Positions 8,080-61,761 are shown, counted from the first letter of the stretch. The stretch: 64,000 nucleotides of DNA from a candidate division TM6 bacterium GW2011_GWF2_28_16 (GCA_000989185.1 LBNX01000003.1:33704-97703), one strand, 5' to 3'. Notes: generated from the letters alone by a model not told the origin. Translations and numbers: made by a program.

Positions 8080-8169
8080 AAATATTATTTTATCTGGTTT
8101 ACATATTGTTTTAATATGATAGAACTATAACATATTTTTAATTAATAGTGAATTTTGAAGGGTTTTTAT

Positions 8170-9516
8170 ATGAATTTTAGATTAAGAATGGCGATAATAA
8201 TTTTATTAGGATTAAGTGGTTTTTTGGGAATTAAGGCATATTCTCATTGGGATTCTTATCATGATCTTGAAACGGCAAAAAAAGCGGTTAATAATGGGGC
8301 TGATATAAATGCTATAGATCAATATGGGCAGACGCCGTTGATGTTTGCTGCAGAAGATGGACTTGCGGATGTAGCAGAATTTTTAATAAAAAATGGTGCG
8401 GATGTAAATTTTAAAAATAATGAAGGAGAAACATCCTTAATGTTGGCGTGCTATTGTATTGATGATTATAATTATGATGGTCGTGTTCGTATTGTTGAGA
8501 TGTTAATAAAGAATGAGGCCGATTTACATGCAAAAAATGATTCGGGAAGGACAGCGTTAAGGTATGCGGCTGTATCCAATTTTGAATTGGATATCATTAA
8601 ATTATTAGTTGAAAAAGGTGCATTGGTAAATGATCCTCAATCTACTGGGTCTGCATTAATAGATTCACTTTATAACTATGCGATATGGGATATTGAAGAA
8701 TTTAGTGACAAAGATTACCGAAATATTAAGTTTTTGATAAAAAATGGAGCAGATGTAAATGCTAGATTTAAGCCTGATGAAGAATTGGTTTCTGTTCTTG
8801 ATATTGCTATTACTACTGGAAGATTAGAGTTAGTCGACCTGTTAATAGGGTATGGAGCCACATCCGAAATTAAAGCTCCGGATGCATTTGGTTGGGCGGT
8901 TATTCGCAAAAATATGAGTGATATTGAGAAATTGTTAGATCGTGATGGTTGTGATTTAATAACTCAAGAGGATAATTTGGGAATTACTGCTTTTGGTTAT
9001 GCTATTTTGTATAATCATAAAAATATTGTTGAGTTGTTTTTGAAAAAAGATCCAAATATAGTAAAAAATAATGTGGATCTATATTCTGATATTCTTACTT
9101 GGGCTTCTAAGCGGGGATACAAAGATATTGTTGAATCTTTGGTAAAAATAGATAAGAGTTTAACTTCTGTTGATGGTAGTGATGAGGCATTAATAAATGC
9201 TATAAAATTTGGACGGATCGATGTAGCTAAATTTTTGATTGAAAATGGTATTAATGTAAATGCAAAAAATTATGATGAAAAAACGGCATTAATGATGGCA
9301 TTAGAAAATGGTTTGTTTGATATTGCTAAGTTACTTATAAAAAATGGAGCAGATGTAAATAGAAAAGTTGTACTATATGGAGAAGAAATTTCTGCTTTAG
9401 GTTATGCTATTAGTTGGGCCATGCATAATAAAAATTATGAAATGGTTCAATTGCTTATAGTTTCTGGAGCAGATACAAATGTAGAAGCGGCAAAATTCTT
9501 GGTAATAAAGAAATAG
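8170..9516 (+). CDS. Ankyrin-repeat protein with N-terminal membrane/signal segment (3' end apparently frameshifted)
   Basis: There are multiple GADVN...G.T.L..A repeats. I prefer the ATG at 8170, which follows GAAGGGTTTTTAT, to the track start at 8155. The last repeat continues in the -1 frame to 9551. Confidence 0.85.
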   Translation: MNFRLRMAIIILLGLSGFLGIKAYSHWDSYHDLETAKKAVNNGADINAIDQYGQTPLMFAAEDGLADVAEFLIKNGADVNFKNNEGETSLMLACYCIDDYNYDGRVRIVEMLIKNEADLHAKNDSGRTALRYAAVSNFELDIIKLLVEKGALVNDPQSTGSALIDSLYNYAIWDIEEFSDKDYRNIKFLIKNGADVNARFKPDEELVSVLDIAITTGRLELVDLLIGYGATSEIKAPDAFGWAVIRKNMSDIEKLLDRDGCDLITQEDNLGITAFGYAILYNHKNIVELFLKKDPNIVKNNVDLYSDILTWASKRGYKDIVESLVKIDKSLTSVDGSDEALINAIKFGRIDVAKFLIENGINVNAKNYDEKTALMMALENGLFDIAKLLIKNGADVNRKVVLYGEEISALGYAISWAMHNKNYEMVQLLIVSGADTNVEAAKFLVIKK

Positions 9517-9561
9517 TAGATATTTTGATAAAAGCAGGGGCTGTTGATTGAGGTAAATTAC

Positions 9562-10212
9562 ATGTTAAAATTTTTAAAGTTAAAAAATACAGTGACTAAA
9601 GGTTTACTATTATTTTTGTTTATATTTTCTATAAATAATCTTGATGCAGGAGAGCGTAAGAAGATTAAGAGAGAGTTTTGTGGCCTGCCAATCCCCTTTA
9701 CCGAAATGCCATTGATCAATGAGATATTAAAACGCACACAAGATTTAGCTGATGATAACTCTAGCTTTCATAATTATAATGATGATATTTCTGCTGCAGT
9801 AGAAGGTATGAAGAGTGATGGCTTTATGGTGCAAGAATTTGCGATAGAATTATTTGAAGCATTGTTTAAAAAAGACAAAGGTTTTGATGAGGTGATTAAA
9901 ATAGCTGGAGAACTTATAATGACAGATCTTTGTTATCAAAGTTTTGCTGTTAAATTATTTAAATGTTTATTTAAAAAAGGCAAAGGATTTGGTGAGGCCA
10001 TTAAAGTTGCTGAAGAAGCCATAAAGTTTGATAATTGGCGTATTCAAAGAAATGCTATAAATTTATTTAGGGCATTGGTAAAAAAAAGACATGAGCCTGC
10101 ATATATACCAGCAATTAAAGCAATGGCATCATGTTTAAGAAGTAATGTTTCCGGATTAAACGTTGAACTAGAAAATTTACTTGAAGATTTGTCTTCACTA
10201 TCTTCACTATAA
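9562..10212 (+). CDS. Hypothetical secreted protein with three HEAT-like helical repeats
   Basis: The ATG at 9562 follows GAGGT. The internal repeats are EFAIELFEALFKKDKGFDEVIKIA, SFAVKLFKCLFKKGKGFGEAIKVA and RNAINLFRALVKKRHEP. Confidence 0.6.
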   Translation: MLKFLKLKNTVTKGLLLFLFIFSINNLDAGERKKIKREFCGLPIPFTEMPLINEILKRTQDLADDNSSFHNYNDDISAAVEGMKSDGFMVQEFAIELFEALFKKDKGFDEVIKIAGELIMTDLCYQSFAVKLFKCLFKKGKGFGEAIKVAEEAIKFDNWRIQRNAINLFRALVKKRHEPAYIPAIKAMASCLRSNVSGLNVELENLLEDLSSLSSL

Positions 10213-10265
10213 TTATAAAAAACGTGATTTTTATTATGTTTTACATATAAAATAGTTGCTTATGC

Positions 10266-10294
10266 TTGACAAATAGACATGATTTTAGTTGAAT
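10266..10294 (+). promoter_or_regulatory. Candidate sigma-70 promoter for tmRNA
   Basis: TTGACA (10266-10271), a 17-nt spacer, then TTGAAT (10289-10294), about 95 nt upstream of the mature tmRNA 5' end. Confidence 0.3.
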
Positions 10295-10300
10295 AAAAAT

Positions 10301-10367
10301 GATCCTCGATCCCTCGATACATCCCCCTTCGCTAAAGCTACGGAGGACACTCGGGACGAACGGGGCA
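10301..10367. repeat. GC-rich repeat, class C with embedded M core
   Basis: GATCCTCGATCCCTCGATACAT-cccCCTTCGCTAAAGCTACGGagg-ACACTCGGGACGAACGGGG. The arms match the mutL copy at 42921-42973. Confidence 0.8.
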
Positions 10368-10389
10368 CTTTAAAATCTTTGAAATTTAT

Positions 10390-10747
10390 GGGGGCGTCAC
10401 GGTTTCGACGTGATATTTGATGTTTTGAGAGCATGTCGAGTTTTGTATGGGAACTCGTAAAAAACATACAAAACAAATAAGTGCAGAACCTGTTTCCGCA
10501 TACGCTTAATAGTAGTTATTAAGTGACTTGTCAGTAAAGCATGTCTATCTGTGGAACTGACTCGTATTAAAAAGATAGAACTCGCTAAGTAGATTTTTTG
10601 GTTTTGTATTTAGCGAAAATCACTAAACTGGCTTTTATTTCAATCTATGCTCTTGAGGTGAAGTAAGAGTATATTCAAGAGATAAACATGTAGTGCTTGG
10701 AACTGATAGTGTTGCGGACATGGGTTCGACTCCCATCGCCTCCACCA
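10390..10747 (+). ncRNA. ssrA: tmRNA (SsrA)
   Basis: The 5' GGGGGCG pairs with CGCCTCC at the 3' end, including the G3:U wobble. GGTTTCGACG is present, as is the T-arm ATGGGTTCGACTCCCAT and an encoded ACCA. The candidate tag ORF is GCA GAA CCT GTT TCC GCA TAC GCT TAA TAG (10483-10512). Confidence 0.9.
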
Positions 10748-10788
10748 GTCTTCGCTCTAATGAGCTACGACTGGCGGGCCAGTACCGG
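10745..10788. repeat. CCA-anchored M-type hairpin at the tmRNA 3' end
   Basis: CCAGTC-ttcgctctaatgagctac-GACTGG, followed by cgggccagtaccgg. The first three bases are the tmRNA CCA. Confidence 0.75.
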
Positions 10789-10811
10789 AATTTTTTTTGA
10801 TATTAGTAGAA

Positions 10812-10858
10812 CCAGTGCGAAGACTGCCCGGCGAAGCCTTGGCGTAGTCGGGCCTGAG
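10812..10858. repeat. GC-rich repeat with M core
   Basis: ccagtgcgaagactgCCCGGC-gaagccttggcgta-GTCGGGcctgag. Confidence 0.7.
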
Positions 10859-10918
10859 TTTGACATTAAAATTTTGCTCGCGCTGTCTAGAAAAATATAG
10901 CTTTAAAATTACTAAAGT

Positions 10919-10990
10919 GAGCCTGCGCCTGTCCACCGTAGCTTTAGCGAAGGTTGGATGAGCGGGCGTATTTGAGGTAGCCCTGCGGCG
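10919..10990. repeat. GC-rich repeat, class A
   Basis: GAGCCTGCGCCTGTCCACCGTAGCTTTAGCGAAGGTTGGATGAGCGGGCGTATTTGAGGTAGCCCTGCGGCG. It is near-identical over the first ~45 nt to 45167-45282. Confidence 0.85.
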
Positions 10991-10991
10991 T

Positions 10992-11047
10992 AAATAATTT
11001 ATGGATGCACATCTATCTCCTTTTAAAATATAAAATTTCTAAAATAT
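10992..11047 (+). repeat. Decayed duplicate of the rarA promoter-proximal/5' coding region
   Basis: aaataatttatggatgcaca at 10992-11011 is identical to 12952-12971. Gapped similarity continues (atctcc/atctct, ttttaaaa, tataaaa, aaaatat). The copy reads ATG GAT GCA CAT ... TAA after 10 codons. Confidence 0.7.
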
Positions 11048-11165
11048 TTTATAAAAACTAATGTTTTTTGTTAAATAATGCATTTGCAGTCTGTAATATA
11101 TTTATGTAATATATATTACATGTGTTACAAATAGAAATGTATTTTTGATAAAAATGGAGGTTTTT

Positions 11166-12839
11166 ATGAATTTTTTAATAAAAACAGTGCAAATATTCAC
11201 ATTTTTGGCATTTTTTGGCCAAACTTTTGCCATGAATCAATTTTTAACTCGATCTGAGACTGTTAAAAATATTTTAGAAAGAAATAACGTTAAACACGAA
11301 ATATTACAAGAAGAACCCAAAGGTTCACCTTTGGGAGAATATTTATTTCTTGGAGTTAAAGAAGTTAATAAATTTGGAAAATTTAATATTGAAGGTGAAG
11401 TAATAGAAATAGAACATGACGATGAAAATGTTTTATTAAATATTGAAAGTAATTTTTTTGTCAAAATATCATCTGATGATCTTGAATTTCTTATAATAAA
11501 TAAAATTTTAGATGTTGAATGGAATGATTTAAGTAATATCGATAAAAATGAAAATAAAAAGTTTAACGTAAGTAATATTTTGTCTAAAGTTGGTAAAGGA
11601 TTAATCTATTATTGTTTGGCTTATAGTATTATTACATCAATACATAGCAAAACAAATGATAAAGTAAAAATGAATGAACAATCTTTTTCTTTTAGACCGA
11701 TTGAAATTAAAGATGATGAAAGAAGATTGAATTATACAATATTTAATAATAAGCATATGAGAGTATGTCATCAAGATACAGGTGAATGTGTTAATGTATT
11801 AGTCGACCATATTTTTGGTCAAACTGATTATTTTCCACAAACTTGTTGTGAAGTTAATAATGTTACTACATCTGTAGAATGTTCTACTTGTGAAAAATCA
11901 AAATTAAATAATTTGGATTTCGATTGGAATCAACGTCTTGACCAAACAGAACGACAACCATTAATGGATACAATAAAAAGTTTTATAAATAAAAATGAAG
12001 GTGATGATAATAAAATAAATTGTATGATTGCATTTCCTGATGATAGTAGTGAATCTGCAATTGAGACTTATAGAAATTGTTATGAATATACAGAACCATT
12101 GTTTTATGGTGGCGCTGGGATAAAATGCGATTCAATAATACATTCTAAAGATTTAGAAAAAAATTTAACATCTTATTATAAAAAATTTAATTTTAATCGG
12201 CCTATAATGATTGTTATTGGTAATATTCGTATAAATAATTTATTTGTGTGGGCTCCGGATTCAGATGAAAGATATAGAAGAGAATATGAAGGTTGTTACA
12301 AAAATATACCGAATGGTAAGATGCCAGTAAAAATACATATATCAACGAAAAACGAGGACGTTTGTTCGATTCCGCTACCTTTTATGTTGCATGAATTAGG
12401 CCATAATAAAGAAGAGGACGATAAATTGATGGAATATCTAGAACAACTACAAGATATTTCTTATAAAGAAAAATTCGAATTATTTAATAGAGAGATAAGA
12501 TCAGACTATTTAGGATTGATTACATCTGAGCCAGAGTCAAGAGTTGCTGCGCTTAAATCTTTTTTTTCATACTTATTTAATGATTTTTGTTTACGGAAAA
12601 ATTTGTATGATTTTGATAATTTAAATGAGGCATTTAAGTCTATATTTGGATATAATCCAAATAAGGGTGATGTTGAGAAGCTTTTAAATTGTGATAGGAT
12701 TACTTACATAGATTCAAATGAAGATGCTCGGGATCCTCATCCAGATATTTTTGATAGAATACAACGGAATTTAGAATATATATACAAAATTGGTGCGGCT
12801 GAAAGATATTTGTTAAATAATGCAAAATCTGAAAATTAA
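11166..12839 (+). CDS. Orphan secreted protein with Cys-rich region and a lone HELGH motif
   Basis: The ATG at 11166 follows GGAGGTTTTT. It has the signal-like MNFLIKTVQIFTFLAFFGQTFA and an HEXXH motif (MLHELGHN). I recognise no wider family. Confidence 0.6.
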   Translation: MNFLIKTVQIFTFLAFFGQTFAMNQFLTRSETVKNILERNNVKHEILQEEPKGSPLGEYLFLGVKEVNKFGKFNIEGEVIEIEHDDENVLLNIESNFFVKISSDDLEFLIINKILDVEWNDLSNIDKNENKKFNVSNILSKVGKGLIYYCLAYSIITSIHSKTNDKVKMNEQSFSFRPIEIKDDERRLNYTIFNNKHMRVCHQDTGECVNVLVDHIFGQTDYFPQTCCEVNNVTTSVECSTCEKSKLNNLDFDWNQRLDQTERQPLMDTIKSFINKNEGDDNKINCMIAFPDDSSESAIETYRNCYEYTEPLFYGGAGIKCDSIIHSKDLEKNLTSYYKKFNFNRPIMIVIGNIRINNLFVWAPDSDERYRREYEGCYKNIPNGKMPVKIHISTKNEDVCSIPLPFMLHELGHNKEEDDKLMEYLEQLQDISYKEKFELFNREIRSDYLGLITSEPESRVAALKSFFSYLFNDFCLRKNLYDFDNLNEAFKSIFGYNPNKGDVEKLLNCDRITYIDSNEDARDPHPDIFDRIQRNLEYIYKIGAAERYLLNNAKSEN

Positions 12840-12863
12840 GTTTAAAAAAATAAATTAATAAAT

Positions 12864-12899
12864 AAAGGCTTAATGAGATAACAAAAACATTAAGCCTTT
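12864..12899 (+). terminator. Hairpin terminator of the orphan cassette gene
   Basis: AAAGGCTTAATG-agataacaaaaa-CATTAAGCCTTT followed by a T-rich tail. Confidence 0.6.
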
Positions 12900-12960
12900 A
12901 TTTATTTTTGGCTATCTGTTATTTTTTAAAATATTAAAAAATTTTAAATTAAAATAATTT

Positions 12961-14280
12961 ATGGATGCACAACAATCTCTTTTTAAAAAAAATATAAAAC
13001 CTTTATCAGAAAATATGCGACCCAAAAATTTGGATGATATTTTTGGTCAAGAGCACTTGCTAGCGCAGGGCGCTATATTCAGAAAATTAGTCGAAAATGA
13101 TAGTTTGGGTAGCGTAATTTTTTGGGGGCCTCCTGGTACAGGCAAAACAACTATAGCAAATGTTATTGCTAATATCACAGAGCGCAAATTTATTACATTT
13201 CATGCAGCGTTTAATGGTGCAAAAGAAGTAAAAGATGTAATAGAATTAGCACAAAAAGAAATAAGTTTTGGTGCTAAAAGTTTAATATTGTTTGTAGATG
13301 AAATTCATAGATTTAATAAAGCACAGCAAGATTTATTTTTAAAACCTATAGAGCACGGTCAAATAATTTTAATAGGGGCTACAACAGAAAATCCTAGTTT
13401 TGCTGTAAATAATGCTTTATTAAGCAGATGCTCTGTTTATGCACTTAATCAATTAAAAGATATAGATCTAGAAAAAATAATTAATAAAATTCTTGAATAT
13501 TATAAAGCTTTAAATAAACAAGTCTTAATAGACGAACAAGCTAGAAAAATATTAATCGATTATTCTAATGGCGATGCTAGAAATATTATTAATATTATAG
13601 AATTAGCTGTTAGTGCATCTAAAGGATTAGTTAAAAATTGTGTAATTATAACTGTTGATATTATAAAAGAATTATTATCGACCAGAAAATTTGCTTATGA
13701 TAAAAATGGAGAACAGCATTATAATTTGCTATCAGCTTTGCATAAGTCTATTAGAGGCTCTGATGCTCAGGCTGGTATTTACTGGCTTGCAAGATTGCTT
13801 GAATCGGGTGCTGACCCATTAATTATTGTAAGAAGATTAATAGTAGCTGCAAGTGAAGATGTTGGTCTTGCAGATCCAGACGCACTACTTCAAGCTATTG
13901 CTGTAAAACATGCTATAGAACATTTGGGTTTGCCTGAGTGTAAAATAAATTTATCACAGTTAGTTATTTATTTGGCTACAGCACCAAAATCTAATAGTGC
14001 TTATATTGCTATAAATAATGCAATAAAAGATGTACATGAAAAAAATAATTTACCTGTGCCTTTAAATATTTGTAATGCAGAATCAAAGCTTATGACAAAT
14101 TTAGGATATGGTGCATATTATAAGTATGATCATGAATTTAAGTATCATTATGCAGGGCAAGAATTTTTGCCAGAAGATTTAAAAAATAGTATATATTATT
14201 CTCCAGGGGATTTGGGGTTTGAAAAAGAAATAAAAAGAAGAATAGAATTTTGGAAAAATTTAAAGGAATCTCATGGTTGA
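12961..14280 (+). CDS. rarA: Replication-associated recombination protein A (MgsA/RarA AAA+ ATPase)
   Basis: 439 aa. It has MRPKNLDDIFGQEHLL, Walker A GPPGTGKTT, Walker B LFVDEIHRFNK and the conserved C-terminal YW..R......DP block. Confidence 0.92.
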   Translation: MDAQQSLFKKNIKPLSENMRPKNLDDIFGQEHLLAQGAIFRKLVENDSLGSVIFWGPPGTGKTTIANVIANITERKFITFHAAFNGAKEVKDVIELAQKEISFGAKSLILFVDEIHRFNKAQQDLFLKPIEHGQIILIGATTENPSFAVNNALLSRCSVYALNQLKDIDLEKIINKILEYYKALNKQVLIDEQARKILIDYSNGDARNIINIIELAVSASKGLVKNCVIITVDIIKELLSTRKFAYDKNGEQHYNLLSALHKSIRGSDAQAGIYWLARLLESGADPLIIVRRLIVAASEDVGLADPDALLQAIAVKHAIEHLGLPECKINLSQLVIYLATAPKSNSAYIAINNAIKDVHEKNNLPVPLNICNAESKLMTNLGYGAYYKYDHEFKYHYAGQEFLPEDLKNSIYYSPGDLGFEKEIKRRIEFWKNLKESHG

Positions 14281-41623: not shown

Positions 41624-43708
41624 TTATAATTTTCTTTTAAACTGTTTTTCAATAAAATCTTTATTGAGTATCCAGGTTGTTGGCCTGCCGTGTGGGCAGG
41701 TCAACAAATTTTCTGTTTTATATAAGTTATTAACAATTTCTTGCATTTGCGTTTCAGTTAAAATATCGCCTGCTTTAACTGCAGATTTGCAAGCAATTTG
41801 TGCATGAATTTTGTCGTTTAATTTTTTTCTAAAAAGTTCTTGATCTAGATTTTCAAATTCTCTAATAAATTCTAAAATTTCAAAAATTAATTCTTTTAAA
41901 GATTGATTTTGAATTCCTGCAGGGCTAGATTTTATGGCTAGTTGGCTTTTGCCAAAAACTTCGATATTTATTCCCTGATTAGCTAAAAACTCTTGAGCTA
42001 ATTTTATTTGTTCAAGTTCAAGATTATTTAAATTTATTATTTCTGGAAACATTAATTTGATTCCAGATTTAGTTTCAAAATTTTTAGTTATATTATCGTA
42101 AATTATTCTTTCGTGTGCTGCATGCTGGTCGATAATAATTAAATTTGTTTCGCTCTGAGCGATAATATACGTTGTTAAAAATTGGCCTATTATTTTAAAG
42201 GATCTAGATCCCCAGCCTACGCCCTTCGTGGCTTCCAACTTCGCCAAGGCTTCGATGGACACGTCGGCGGGCAGGCCGGTTTCTCTGGTAGGGATAACAA
42301 ACTCTGTTTGAGTTGGATTTATATTGCTGGATCCTGAATCAAGTTCAGGATGACAAACGGGGTGGGCAATATAACTATTATATTTAAAAGTACGCGACTG
42401 AGATCCCCAGCCTTCGCCCTTCGTGGCTTCCAACTTCGCCAAGGCTTCGATGGACACGTCGGCGGGCAGGCCGGTTTCTCTGGCCGGGATGACAGCGCTA
42501 AGAGTTGTGTTGAGCAAGCCAGAAGACATACTAGGGCTGACTATATCTGTGTTAAGGTTGGTTTCTCTGGTCGGGATGACATTGCCAATAAAACTGCGAA
42601 CGTTTGCATCCAGAGTTTCTTTAATAATTCTTTGCAATAAATTTGTTACAGTATGTGGCTTTAAAAAGCGAACTTCTTCTTTTTTGGGATGAACATTAAT
42701 ATCAACAAAATTACTTGGTGTGTTTATAAAAATAAAACTAGCCGGGAATTTTGCCGGAGGTAAAACTCCAGTGTAGCCTTTAAAGAGTGCCTTATTTAAT
42801 TCTGTGTCTTTTATATAACGATTATTAACAAAAAAGAATATTTGGTGTTTGCCATAACGCCATAGGTTGTGATTACTGGTAAGACCAGAGATTGAGATTG
42901 ATGTATTGTTTTTATTACTAGATCCTGATCCCTCGATACATTTTTCTTGCGAAAAACACTCGGGATGAACGGGTTTAGGAGTACAAGTTGTGGGTTGGTT
43001 GTCATCCCGGGCTTGACCCGGGATCTCTCCATTATTTATCTCTAGCATGCTTTCGCTTAAGCTATGCCCCCAGAGTTGGGCAACGCGATCTTTAATGTTT
43101 TGTGTAGCAGGCGCATTAAGTATAATTTTGTCGTCTTTAAAAAGTTTAAAATTAATATTAATATTGCTTAAACAAAATGCATTAAAAATATTTAATATCT
43201 GGTTAAATTCAGTTTCGTCTTGTTTTAAAAATTTTTTACGAACAGGTAAATTAAAAAAAAGATCATATATTTGTAAATCTGTTCCTATTGGACATGAAAC
43301 ACTTTCTTGAGAGTGTAATTTATTTTCGTAATAAATTATTTTGGTACCAACTTCTTGATTGTTAGTTTTAGTTATTAAAGTTACTTTGCTAACAGCACTA
43401 ATGCTTGCAAGAGCTTCACCTCTAAAACCAAAAGATGCTATATTTTCTAGGTCATTTATATTTTCTATTTTACTTGTTGCGTGCTTTTCAAAACACAATA
43501 AAGCATCTTGTTCGCCCATGCCAGAGCCGTTATCTACAAGTCTAATTAAACTCTTGCCAGAATCTTTTATATATAAATTTATTTGAGTGCTATTGGCATC
43601 TATAGAATTTTCTATTATTTCTTTAACTATATTTGCTGGACGCTCGACAACTTCGCCAGCTGCAATTTTTGCAGCCTGCTCAGGTGCTAATATTTTTATC
43701 TTGTTCAT
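41624..43708 (-). CDS. mutL: DNA mismatch repair protein MutL (linker expanded by repeat insertions)
   Basis: It has the GHKL motifs (ERPANIVKEIIENSIDA, DNGSGM, GFRGEAL) and the C-terminal domain (IIGQFLTTYII...DQHAAHERI). The ORF is intact at 694 aa. Confidence 0.92.
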   Translation of the reverse strand: MNKIKILAPEQAAKIAAGEVVERPANIVKEIIENSIDANSTQINLYIKDSGKSLIRLVDNGSGMGEQDALLCFEKHATSKIENINDLENIASFGFRGEALASISAVSKVTLITKTNNQEVGTKIIYYENKLHSQESVSCPIGTDLQIYDLFFNLPVRKKFLKQDETEFNQILNIFNAFCLSNININFKLFKDDKIILNAPATQNIKDRVAQLWGHSLSESMLEINNGEIPGQARDDNQPTTCTPKPVHPECFSQEKCIEGSGSSNKNNTSISISGLTSNHNLWRYGKHQIFFFVNNRYIKDTELNKALFKGYTGVLPPAKFPASFIFINTPSNFVDINVHPKKEEVRFLKPHTVTNLLQRIIKETLDANVRSFIGNVIPTRETNLNTDIVSPSMSSGLLNTTLSAVIPARETGLPADVSIEALAKLEATKGEGWGSQSRTFKYNSYIAHPVCHPELDSGSSNINPTQTEFVIPTRETGLPADVSIEALAKLEATKGVGWGSRSFKIIGQFLTTYIIAQSETNLIIIDQHAAHERIIYDNITKNFETKSGIKLMFPEIINLNNLELEQIKLAQEFLANQGINIEVFGKSQLAIKSSPAGIQNQSLKELIFEILEFIREFENLDQELFRKKLNDKIHAQIACKSAVKAGDILTETQMQEIVNNLYKTENLLTCPHGRPTTWILNKDFIEKQFKRKL
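42207..42298. repeat. 92-nt GC-rich repeat unit, copy 1, in-frame in mutL
   Basis: gatccccagcctacgcccttcgtggcttCCAACttcgccaaggcttcGATGGacacgtcggcgggcaggccggtttctctggtagggataac. It translates as IPTRETGLPADVSIEALAKLEATKGVGWGS. Confidence 0.9.
42326..42362. repeat. B-type hairpin repeat, in-frame in mutL
   Basis: gctgGATCCTGAAtcaagTTCAGGATgacaaacgggg codes HPELDSGSS. Confidence 0.8.
42402..42493. repeat. 92-nt GC-rich repeat unit, copy 2, in-frame in mutL
   Basis: It differs from 42207-42298 at 4 of 92 positions and lies 195 nt away. It translates as IPARETGLPADVSIEALAKLEATKGEGWGS. Confidence 0.9.
42560..42580. repeat. Solo terminal fragment of the 92-nt unit, in mutL
   Basis: ggtttctctggtcgggatgac matches the end of the 92-nt units and codes VIPTRET. 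Confidence 0.7.
42921..42973. repeat. Class C GC-rich repeat, in-frame in mutL
   Basis: GATCCTGATCCCTCGATACAT-ttttcttgcgaaaa-ACACTCGGGATGAACGGG has arms matching 10301-10367. Confidence 0.8.
43001..43030. repeat. B-short palindromic repeat, in-frame in mutL
   Basis: GTCATCCCGG-gcttgac-CCGGGATCTCTCC codes GEIPGQARDD. Confidence 0.8.
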
Positions 43709-45140: not shown

Positions 45141-45166
45141 TTTCGTAATAACTGTAAAATTTTTTT

Positions 45167-45282
45167 GAGCCTGCGCCTGTCCGCCGTAGCTTTAGCGAAG
45201 GCTGGACAAGCAGGCGAATTTATGGTAGCCCAGTGGCAGCCTGCCCGCCATAGCCTTGGCGACGGCTAGGTAAGTCCTGGGC
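45167..45282. repeat. Class A GC-rich repeat (long form, two M cores)
   Basis: GAGCCTGCGCCTGTCCGCCGTAGCTTTAGCGAAGGCTGGACAAGCAGGCG...GGTAGCCCAGTGGCAGCCTGCCCGCCATAGCCTTGGCGACGGCTAGG... Confidence 0.85.
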
Positions 45283-45289
45283 TTATAAT

Positions 45290-59173: not shown

Positions 59174-59192
59174 AAAAAATTAACTTGCATTT

Positions 59193-59244
59193 GAGCCTGC
59201 TCAAGCAGGCGGCTTTGAGGTAGCCCAGTGCGTGTGCGCTGGGC
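59193..59244. repeat. Class A GC-rich repeat (short form)
   Basis: GAGCCTGCTCAAGCAGGCGGCTTTGAGGTAGCCCAGTGCGTGTGCGCTGGGC. Confidence 0.8.
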
Positions 59245-59277
59245 TAATTTGTTTTGTATTAAAGGGCCTATATTTTT

Positions 59278-61610: not shown

Positions 61611-61688
61611 GTCCAGGTCCGCCGTCGCTCTGGCGAGCTTCCACCGACGCTAAAGCTATGGTGGACATGATGGCGTGACAGCCTACGC
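61611..61688. repeat. GC-rich repeat with M core between the two tRNA-Ser genes
   Basis: gtccaggtccgccgtcgctctggcgagcttCCACCgacgctaaagctatGGTGGacatgatggcgtgacagcctacgc. Confidence 0.75.
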
Positions 61689-61721
61689 AATAGTGCTAAC
61701 AAAGTTTTTATAATATAAATA

Positions 61722-61761
61722 CCGGTCCTGGCATGCCAGCCGTAGCTTTAGCGTAGGCTGG
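61722..61761. repeat. CCA-anchored M-type hairpin at the 3' end of tRNA-Ser(GCT)
   Basis: ccggtcctggcatgCCAGCC-gtagctttagcgta-GGCTGG overlaps the tRNA CCA complement. Confidence 0.8.

Follow-up and report, generated by a model that had tools for sequence, protein, structure and literature searches.

A duplicated rarA start beside tmRNA in a Dependentiae genome is probably the scar of general recombination in a rapidly changing gene slot

Genomic islands that bear an integrase reportedly occur at tmRNA and tRNA genes. A second relevant process is homology-facilitated illegitimate recombination, which, together with Campbell-type single-crossover integration, has been defined experimentally in transformable bacteria. 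The minimal mobile elements (MMEs) of Neisseria, as far as they are outlined in PMC3787668 (citing Saunders & Snyder 2002; Snyder et al. 2007), are variable cassettes that lie between fixed conserved genes, carry no mobility genes and are exchanged by homologous recombination. This work concerns a locus in candidate division TM6 bacterium GW2011_GWF2_28_16, a member of Dependentiae with a genome of ~28% G+C, within a stretch of 64,000 nt (GCA_000989185.1 LBNX01000003.1:33704-97703, one strand) that is referred to as the window throughout. In the slot between tmRNA and rarA of the window, the start of rarA occurs twice, and the two copies bracket a 1.96-kb unit with a single orphan gene. We propose that the duplicated rarA start is probably the scar of general recombination in a rapidly changing slot, and not the footprint of a self-mobile element.

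By analogy, the closest described concept for this slot appears to be the Neisseria MME. As in the MMEs, a slot between two conserved genes holds different whole-gene cassettes or nothing, and no transposase, integrase or phage genes were matched. Unlike in the MMEs, exchange between lineages is no more than a possibility here, and the partial duplicate of rarA, of a kind that MMEs normally do not leave of a flanking gene, implies at least one illegitimate join. The locus also resembles the integrase islands at tmRNA, since lineage-specific DNA lies beside tmRNA, is bounded by direct repeats and has an empty site in a relative; it differs from them in that the repeat is the rarA 5′ end, no integrase was found, the cargo is a single gene, and the intact copy belongs to the native gene with its ancestral leader. 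A partial duplicate of the rarA flank implies an illegitimate join or a single-crossover event, and homology-facilitated illegitimate and Campbell-type events likewise combine a homologous anchor (here tmRNA or the rarA start) with an illegitimate join to give a mosaic with a partially duplicated flank; an AAAAA microhomology at the 11052/11057 join is compatible with this. Unlike the experimentally defined cases, the process here is deduced from its end product, from which donor and recipient are indistinguishable. The locus presents an ordinary phenomenon, namely a well resolved new instance of known genome dynamics, and it cautions against assuming an integrase island wherever a duplicated gene fragment lies beside tmRNA. 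It also offers a cleanly resolved example of ORFan gain and loss beside a stable-RNA gene in Dependentiae, an uncultured phylum of intracellular symbionts whose genome dynamics are little studied.

The duplication itself is unambiguous. The 20-mer AAATAATTTATGGATGCACA occurs at 10992-11011 and at 12952-12971, and these are its sole two matches in 64 kb even with 3 mismatches allowed (0.13 expected). The ungapped match between the copies covers 37 nt (92%), and a gapped local alignment pairs 10992-11047 with 12952-13016, that is, rarA -9 to ~+56, with a score of 65, compared with maxima of 46 in 2963 random pairs of natural 181-nt window segments and of 37 in 3000 shuffles. The original prediction, which was made from the sequence alone, had noted both the repeated 20-mer and the gapped similarity beyond it, and had allowed that a match between low-complexity AT-rich sequences might be expected by chance; the similarity stands far above that expectation. 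Although the genome has 28% G+C and A/T runs form part of the extended similarity, it is hardly credible that the resemblance arose by chance in low-complexity sequence or from a chimeric assembly. The 20-mer holds GGATGCACA, which is not low-complexity; the locus is 100% identical in ENA scaffold_586 and in a Logan contig from SRR3309375, which are independent assemblies, and therefore the duplicate is not an assembly artefact; and the junction found in the closest relative, described below, independently confirms the homology of the left copy. Chance and chimera are thus effectively refuted by the alignment statistics, that junction and the independent assemblies.

The left copy (10992..11052, + strand) is a dead 5′ fragment of rarA, from -9 to ~+56, that begins 245 nt downstream of tmRNA, in line with the ~250 nt predicted. 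It reads ATG GAT GCA CAT CTA TCT CCT TTT AAA ATA TAA, i.e. MDAHLSPFKI, 10 codons followed by an in-frame stop, which bears out the earlier description of a dead start. Compared with the right copy, it carries 4 substitutions in 56 aligned positions and 3 indels, all of them after the exact 20-mer; T at +14, counted among the "substitutions", is also what the related contigs L004, L005 and L007 carry there. The right copy (12952..13016, + strand; -9 to +56) is the genuine rarA start, and 1 aligned position differs from the closest relative over +1..+56.

Comparison was made with nine related contigs, including one conspecific strain variant. RarA homologues were found at 66-89% identity, and contigs were fetched for those at 68-89%, namely L003, L004, L005, L007/L008, L094, L096 and L097, in addition to the strain variant L010; L001 denotes the locus of the window at 2961-24280. 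L003 is the closest relative (RarA 89% identical), and L007 derives from the same Rifle sample as the window. A RarA scan of genome contigs gave, among the matches listed, only distant RarA genes (<=53% identity), and a scan of metagenome contigs with a rarA-start pattern gave one short contig that was already in the set.

Three allele structures emerge from this comparison. First, in L003 tmRNA is followed by GC-rich repeats and then directly by rarA, with one repeat copy and with neither cassette nor leader. L003 is colinear with window 10718-11047 (tmRNA end to ~rarA +56), including the junction of the GC-rich repeat R3 with rarA(-9), which stands before the dead copy in the window and before the live intact rarA in L003; the aligned parts from repeat R2 to R3 are 89% identical, and a nested insert of ~31 nt in R3 is missing in L003. 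Thus L003 lacks the unit and keeps one repeat copy, which is the pattern expected of an attL/attR pair or of a duplication scar, and the tmRNA-rarA interval of relatives, whose comparison the original prediction had recommended, does show repeats that bracket a unit absent from the closest relative. That R3 carried the rarA fragment along as a transduced flank was considered and rejected, as other R3-type copies have unrelated flanks and the live rarA of the window is preceded by the ancestral leader. Second, L010, a 2,335-nt JGI contig holding the second member of the orphan protein's cluster, is 99.1% identical to window 11053-13217 (cassette, leader and rarA start), but the 171 nt that open the contig bear no relation to window 10895-11052 and contain no left copy beside the cassette. 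These 171 nt consist of GC-rich repeats and the 5′ half of a post-tmRNA module of the GCCTACGC variant, as in L007, while the window has the GTCTTCGC variant; L010 begins ..CAGCCTACGC, which resembles the tmRNA end followed by that other variant of the module. Third, the window holds both structures, its flank diverging from L010 at 11052/11053, within ~5 nt of the end of the dead copy. On these alignments, the most fitting description of the window is therefore an L003-type sequence (tmRNA to rarA +56) joined head to tail to an L010-type sequence (cassette, leader and rarA). The three alleles (empty, filled, and filled with a scar) make gain and loss testable in existing Rifle metagenome reads.

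The ancestry of the right copy is indicated by its leader. The native rarA leader (12890..12960, + strand) is conserved upstream of rarA in L007, L097 and L096: over -80..-1 it matches L007 at 70/77 aligned positions, the best-conserved intergenic stretch between these two genomes, and in L007 it begins right after the stop codon of a GIY-YIG gene; its core, CTTTATTT..TG.TATTTTT, is recognisable also in the more distant L097 and L096, and it is absent from L003 and L004/L094. Given this conservation, the right copy with its leader is the native, ancestral rarA start, the left copy is the extra piece, and the cassette therefore brought no replacement end. The original prediction had read the locus as the scar of an insertion that carried a replacement target end, attL/attR-like, or of a duplication-mediated gene capture. 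Real repeats do bracket a unit that L003 lacks, but attL/attR-like signatures of a mobile element were not found, and the replacement end is contradicted by the intact right copy joined to a ~70 nt leader that is conserved in the three genomes named. The same prediction had regarded a relative with the gene and without the duplication as evidence against itself, and L010 nearly supplies it, carrying the gene and the leader with no left copy in the adjoining 171 nt. Its second option, duplication-mediated gene capture, agrees better with the evidence than does a mobile element that has att sites.

Signatures of mobile elements were sought along the locus. Across the ~21 kb of L001 around the cassette, no called gene had a Pfam hit to an integrase or recombinase, in agreement with the original prediction. 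The tmRNA 3′ end (25 nt) occurs once in 64 kb even with 3 mismatches, and is thus not duplicated at the far border. Direct repeats of a target-gene end and an empty one-copy site in L003 are present, as for attL/attR, but the intact gene end is not supplied by the element, since the intact copy is contiguous with the leader of the cassette-free L007, L097 and L096. Recurrent use of the same site is not seen either, as no duplicate of the rarA start occurs in the tmRNA-rarA intervals of L003, L004, L005 and L008, and L010 has no left copy at the cassette edge. As for an integron attC site, the sole palindrome is an AT-rich terminator hairpin with no integrase nearby (judged from palindromes and Pfam hits), and by eye the 20-mer lacks the 11-6-11 inverted-arm layout of the 28-bp Xer/dif sites of IMEX or pdif modules. 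No paralogue of the orphan gene, which the original prediction had suggested seeking elsewhere, was found among 5.8 billion proteins or in the six-frame open reading frames (ORFs) of the window and loci. With no integrase, no tmRNA-end repeat, no duplicates in relatives and no other orphan copy, a self-mobile or integrase-mobilised element therefore finds little support.

A small mobilisable cassette, with a site-specific recombinase acting in trans and the 20-bp rarA-start core as attL/attR, would nevertheless explain several features: the core is exact over 20 nt with similarity declining beyond it, in the sister species L003 the empty site is precise and holds one core copy, the 1.96-kb unit is self-contained with its own ribosome-binding site (RBS), ORF and terminator, and the similarity of the leader to L007 ends near the core, as a crossover there predicts. 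However, the lack of a recombinase hit, the right end that is an ancestral leader found in cassette-free relatives, the four other slots without a duplicate, the cassette of L010 without a left core, and the absence of further copies of the orphan gene from the searches above together make this origin unlikely. There is also only a slim prospect that the 1,960-bp unit is an integrase-free mobile cassette that would cycle between filled and empty states via a circular intermediate, with the 20-65 bp rarA translation-initiation region as its attachment site; if true, this would amount to an MME that has a defined core and operates among co-occurring Dependentiae species.

We propose instead that homologous recombination and at least one illegitimate join between two alleles of the slot gave rise to the head-to-tail mosaic. 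The empty allele would have contributed the part from the tmRNA end to ~rarA codon 19, colinear with L003, and the filled allele the part from 11053 on, colinear with L010 (orphan gene, native leader and rarA). Under this general-recombination scheme, the left copy would be a gene fragment that is dead and decaying, the right copy would be the gene as it originally stood, leader included, and the homology would be supplied by the conserved flanks tmRNA and rarA, with no dedicated recombinase. Simple recombination between the direct repeats could furthermore remove the 1.96-kb unit, which would yield exactly the L003 structure.

The timing of these events may be gauged from sequence divergence. 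Between the window and L003, differences affect 41% of four-fold sites, 31% of third codon positions and ~25% of the AT-rich R2-R3 spacer, and the GC-rich elements of the two are ~96% identical. Set against this, the 4 substitutions and 3 indels of the dead copy would fit a fragment roughly as old as the split of the window and L003. Two histories could then be envisaged. In history (a), a window-like structure would predate that split, L003 would have lost the cassette and leader via the two copies, and L010 would recently have replaced its left block. In history (b), a tmRNA-anchored L003-type segment would have been joined illegitimately to a filled allele at the AAAAA microhomology, which accounts for the breakpoint and for how the fragment arose, yet needs an old polymorphism. 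Both histories amount to general recombination, and either may hold on the available genomes.

Several points weigh against general recombination as told here. The origin of the left copy is inferred rather than observed, and each order of events has problems: history (a) leaves the coincidence of the breakpoint with the dead-copy end (~5 nt) accidental (p ~0.1 by rough estimate), and a mosaic formed after the split of the window and L010 conflicts with the decay of the dead copy, given that the two strains differ at only ~1.3% of synonymous sites, far below that decay. The leader, with 70/77 matches to L007, exceeds the adjoining rarA coding sequence (76-81%), which could mean that the leader was transferred and not that it is under constraint. 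Decay of the dead copy is uneven, sparing its first 20 nt, and this is mildly improbable (~0.03-0.1 by estimate). In addition, sampling is thin, with L003 as the sole close relative and L010 as the sole strain variant, each contig cut at the tmRNA end. As to the leader, its match to L007 may result from promoter constraint or from exchange between co-occurring species; more broadly, exchange between lineages might be read from the leader match and from 99%-identical strains with non-orthologous left blocks, for which constraint or deletion are alternatives.

Breaks at that position are not confined to these two contigs. Four independent short-read contigs break at or just past the tmRNA 3′ end (the L013 end and the L002 start, both at ~window 10742-10746, the L003 start and the L010 start), and this fits a branch in the assembly graph, with co-occurring alleles or species that have a common tmRNA and different downstream DNA.

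The uneven decay of the left copy could also be taken as a sign of function, if its -9..+11 initiation region drove a 10-codon upstream ORF or bound a regulator shared with rarA and thereby controlled the orphan gene: the 20 nt around the start codon are perfect with the downstream part decayed, and the short ORF MDAHLSPFKI stops 130 nt before the orphan ATG. Yet L010 has an intact orphan gene and the 113 nt upstream of it with no left copy, the uneven decay is merely marginally improbable, and no RNA family or structure was detected there, so that retention for function seems very improbable. An origin purely within one genome, with no exchange between lineages, deserves somewhat more attention: a tandem duplication from the cassette to rarA +56 would have been followed by deletion of the first cassette copy, and repeat recombination would later have stripped L003 of the rest. 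The junction of rarA +56 with the cassette start does look like a tandem-duplication joint, recombination between the copies would give just the structure of L003, and the left copy has decayed to an extent in keeping with an origin near the split of the window and L003. But at least two extra events are needed, one of them placing R3 exactly at -9, and the non-orthologous post-tmRNA module of the 99%-identical L010 (GCCTACGC versus GTCTTCGC type) is left unexplained; we regard this origin as rather unlikely.

The cargo of the unit is a near-ORFan gene (11166..12839, + strand, ORF call) that encodes, as predicted, a 557-aa protein with a HELGH motif, located at residues 409-413 and present in both the window and L010. 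By inspection, a signal-peptide-like N terminus leads into a ~100-aa domain shared with a few proteins, a hydrophobic segment follows at ~140-160, and the remaining ~390 aa, which include HELGH, are unique; with 14 Cys among 557 residues (2.5%) it is not strikingly Cys-rich, contrary to the original prediction. A search of 5.8 billion proteins returned only the protein itself, it had no match in Pfam, NCBIfam, PHROG or PDB, and its single-sequence AlphaFold2 model was unusable (pLDDT 33). HMMER against 1.84 billion representatives gave 3 distant homologues, which match only residues 4-166 (E 4e-8 to 3e-5); the predicted orphan status thus applies to the remainder of the protein, which is unique, and not to this part. 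The homologues are limited to the N-terminal ~130-165 residues of the orphan protein and overall comprise two of ~200 aa (P0124, and P0126 via a follow-up profile search), one of 114 aa and one of 442 aa, the last with ankyrin-like repeats, by eye, in its C-terminal half. P0124 and P0126 adjoin a mutS-like gene and a ParE toxin pair on other metagenome contigs of ~30% G+C, away from tmRNA.

The orphan ORF is intact in L010, from which the window differs by 11 nonsynonymous and 4 synonymous changes, a nonsynonymous-to-synonymous rate ratio (dN/dS) of ~0.64. As 4 of the nonsynonymous differences fall in residues 400-414, beside HELGH, and no peptidase family was matched, a metallopeptidase function is unsupported. 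The product is predicted to be probably a fast-evolving secreted or membrane protein, which is typical slot cargo in an intracellular symbiont. Separately, an exact direct repeat of 16 nt, TTTGTTAAATAATGCA, lies at 11067-11082, inside the left end of the cassette, and at 12809-12824, at the 3′ end of the orphan ORF; it was set aside, its probability of arising by chance being ~10% by rough estimate, given 9 such pairs in 64 kb.

Beyond the unit itself, the gene order ksgA-tmRNA-[slot]-rarA-trxB is kept across the related contigs, and the slot has 6 different contents over 10 contigs: a 79-aa GIY-YIG gene in L007/L008 (RarA 77%) and L097 (68%), a GIY-YIG gene with a 227-aa ORF in L005 (78%), a 235-aa ORF in L004/L094 (80% and 78%), a 208-aa ORF in L096 (69%), nothing in L003 (89%), and the 557-aa ORF in the window. 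All pairwise comparisons among the 227-, 235- and 557-aa slot ORFs and a 222-aa ORF of the window (with the 208-aa ORF of L096 outside the comparison) gave no significant similarity, and homology between slot ORFs of different genomes was accordingly rejected for this set. The GIY-YIG proteins of L005 and L007 are 56% identical, and the GIY-YIG gene is therefore likely, from this comparison, the ancestral occupant of the slot; no remnant of it was found in the window by tblastn. Just left of the slot, the window, L003, L005, L007 and L097 all retain the motif ATCTAGAAAA, and the slot therefore behaves as a site of precise ORF replacement.

Gene turnover was also observed elsewhere in the neighbourhood. 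Between ksgA and tmRNA, window 8155-10212 holds an ankyrin-repeat gene (453 aa) and the 222-aa ORF, which has internal 105-nt repeats; both are absent from the 5 relatives whose contigs span ksgA-tmRNA, and they thus represent a second lineage-specific gain beside tmRNA. A flank duplication like that at rarA was looked for around this insertion, and none was found. Other lineage-specific ORFs break the conserved neighbourhood at L003 2586-3641, L007 6633-7862 and L096 6396-6863, for example a 351-aa ORF between trxB and an AAA gene in L003, and therefore ORFan turnover is not limited to the tmRNA-rarA slot.

The remaining features of the slot lie, all on the + strand, between its two conserved flanks. 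On the left, tmRNA (10390..10747) was called by ARAGORN and by Rfam RF00023 (167.5 bits), the sole match in an Rfam scan of 10200-13100, and the gene ends with 30 nt that L003 carries unchanged at its positions 1-30. Directly after its CCA end follows a GC-rich structured module (10748..10862), recognised by conservation and fold, that comprises R1, an AT-rich spacer and R2. A further AT-rich spacer (10883..10918) with the motif CTGTCTAGAAAAA is, by motif comparison, the orthologue of the stretch ahead of the GIY-YIG gene in the relatives; the motif ATCTAGAA(A) precedes the GIY-YIG ATG in L005, L007/L008 and L097, and occurs in L003 too. R3 (10919..10991), of which family copies lie at 45161-45284 and 59184-59260, abuts the dead rarA start and holds the nested mini-element of ~31 nt at ~10928-10958. 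On the right, rarA/mgsA (12961..14280) is supported by Pfam matches (MgsA_C 2.3e-63, AAA_assoc_2 and AAA) and by syntenic orthologues at 68-89% identity.

The left end of the cassette (11053..11165), where identity to L010 begins, is the upstream region of the orphan gene, with a GGAGG RBS at 11157-11161 and candidate promoters picked by eye; a consensus promoter scan gave no more sites than in shuffled sequence. Part of this region, 11124-11152 (GTTACAAATAGAAATG...GATAAA), resembles the tmRNA promoter region at 10266-10294 (TTGACAAATAGACATG...TTGAAT), the latter being conserved in relatives, and the likeness may reflect a shared promoter type or a copied promoter. Downstream of the gene, a terminator-like AT-rich hairpin (12857-12906) with 19-bp perfect arms and a 12-nt loop is followed by a T run, the feature spanning 12857..12911, in line with the original prediction that the gene has its own terminator; the 3′ arm of the hairpin and the first part of the conserved rarA leader overlap. 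A consensus terminator scan missed the hairpin because of the 12-nt loop.

The GC-rich elements of the locus are dispersed, and may deserve a follow-up of their own. Repetitive extragenic palindromic (REP) sequences, bacterial interspersed mosaic elements (BIMEs) and Rickettsia palindromic elements serve as comparison systems (PMC3733652). As in these systems, short GC-rich hairpin repeats lie in intergenic DNA, often nested or paired and often downstream of genes, and some are in frame in repair genes; unlike them, the host is an AT-rich member of Dependentiae, and the repeats flank the rarA duplication but need not be its cause. The post-CCA module, which had no Rfam match, occurs directly after tmRNA in 5 genomes and after tRNA-Ser(gct) in the window (window 10748-10862 and 61615-61761 (minus); L005 8795-8885; L008 9115-9232; L096 2917-3003; L097 3418-3532). 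Its 8-bp long-range stem GYCTWCGC/GCGWAGRC (window 10748-10755 with 10817-10824) shows compensatory changes at 2 positions and is intact in 6/6 sequences.

A nested GC-rich hairpin family is found at window 10919-10991, 45161-45284, 59184-59260 and 10303-10372 and at L097 3836-3950, and may be REP-like (PMC3733652); the window contains the mini-element core CCGTAGCTTTAGCGAAGG 5 times, compared with 0.01 expected. Three differences between relatives indicate recent mobility of the GC-rich elements, namely the 31-nt nested insert in R3 of the window that is missing in L003, a 70-nt element between the tmRNA promoter and the tmRNA 5′ end in the window only, and a module between GIY-YIG and rarA in L097 only. 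GC-rich repeats also lie in frame inside mutL (ORF 41624-43708, minus), in the linker between the N- and C-terminal domains (window 42199-42509 and 42989-43091), and include a 195-nt tandem pair encoding IPTRETGLPADVSIEALAKLEATKG.GWGS twice, which recalls Rickettsia palindromic elements and intragenic REPs in repair genes. Finally, two copies of the GC-rich mini-element form a 24-nt inverted repeat (96% complementary) that brackets tmRNA at 10326-10349 and 10930-10953 and could be a substrate for inversion.

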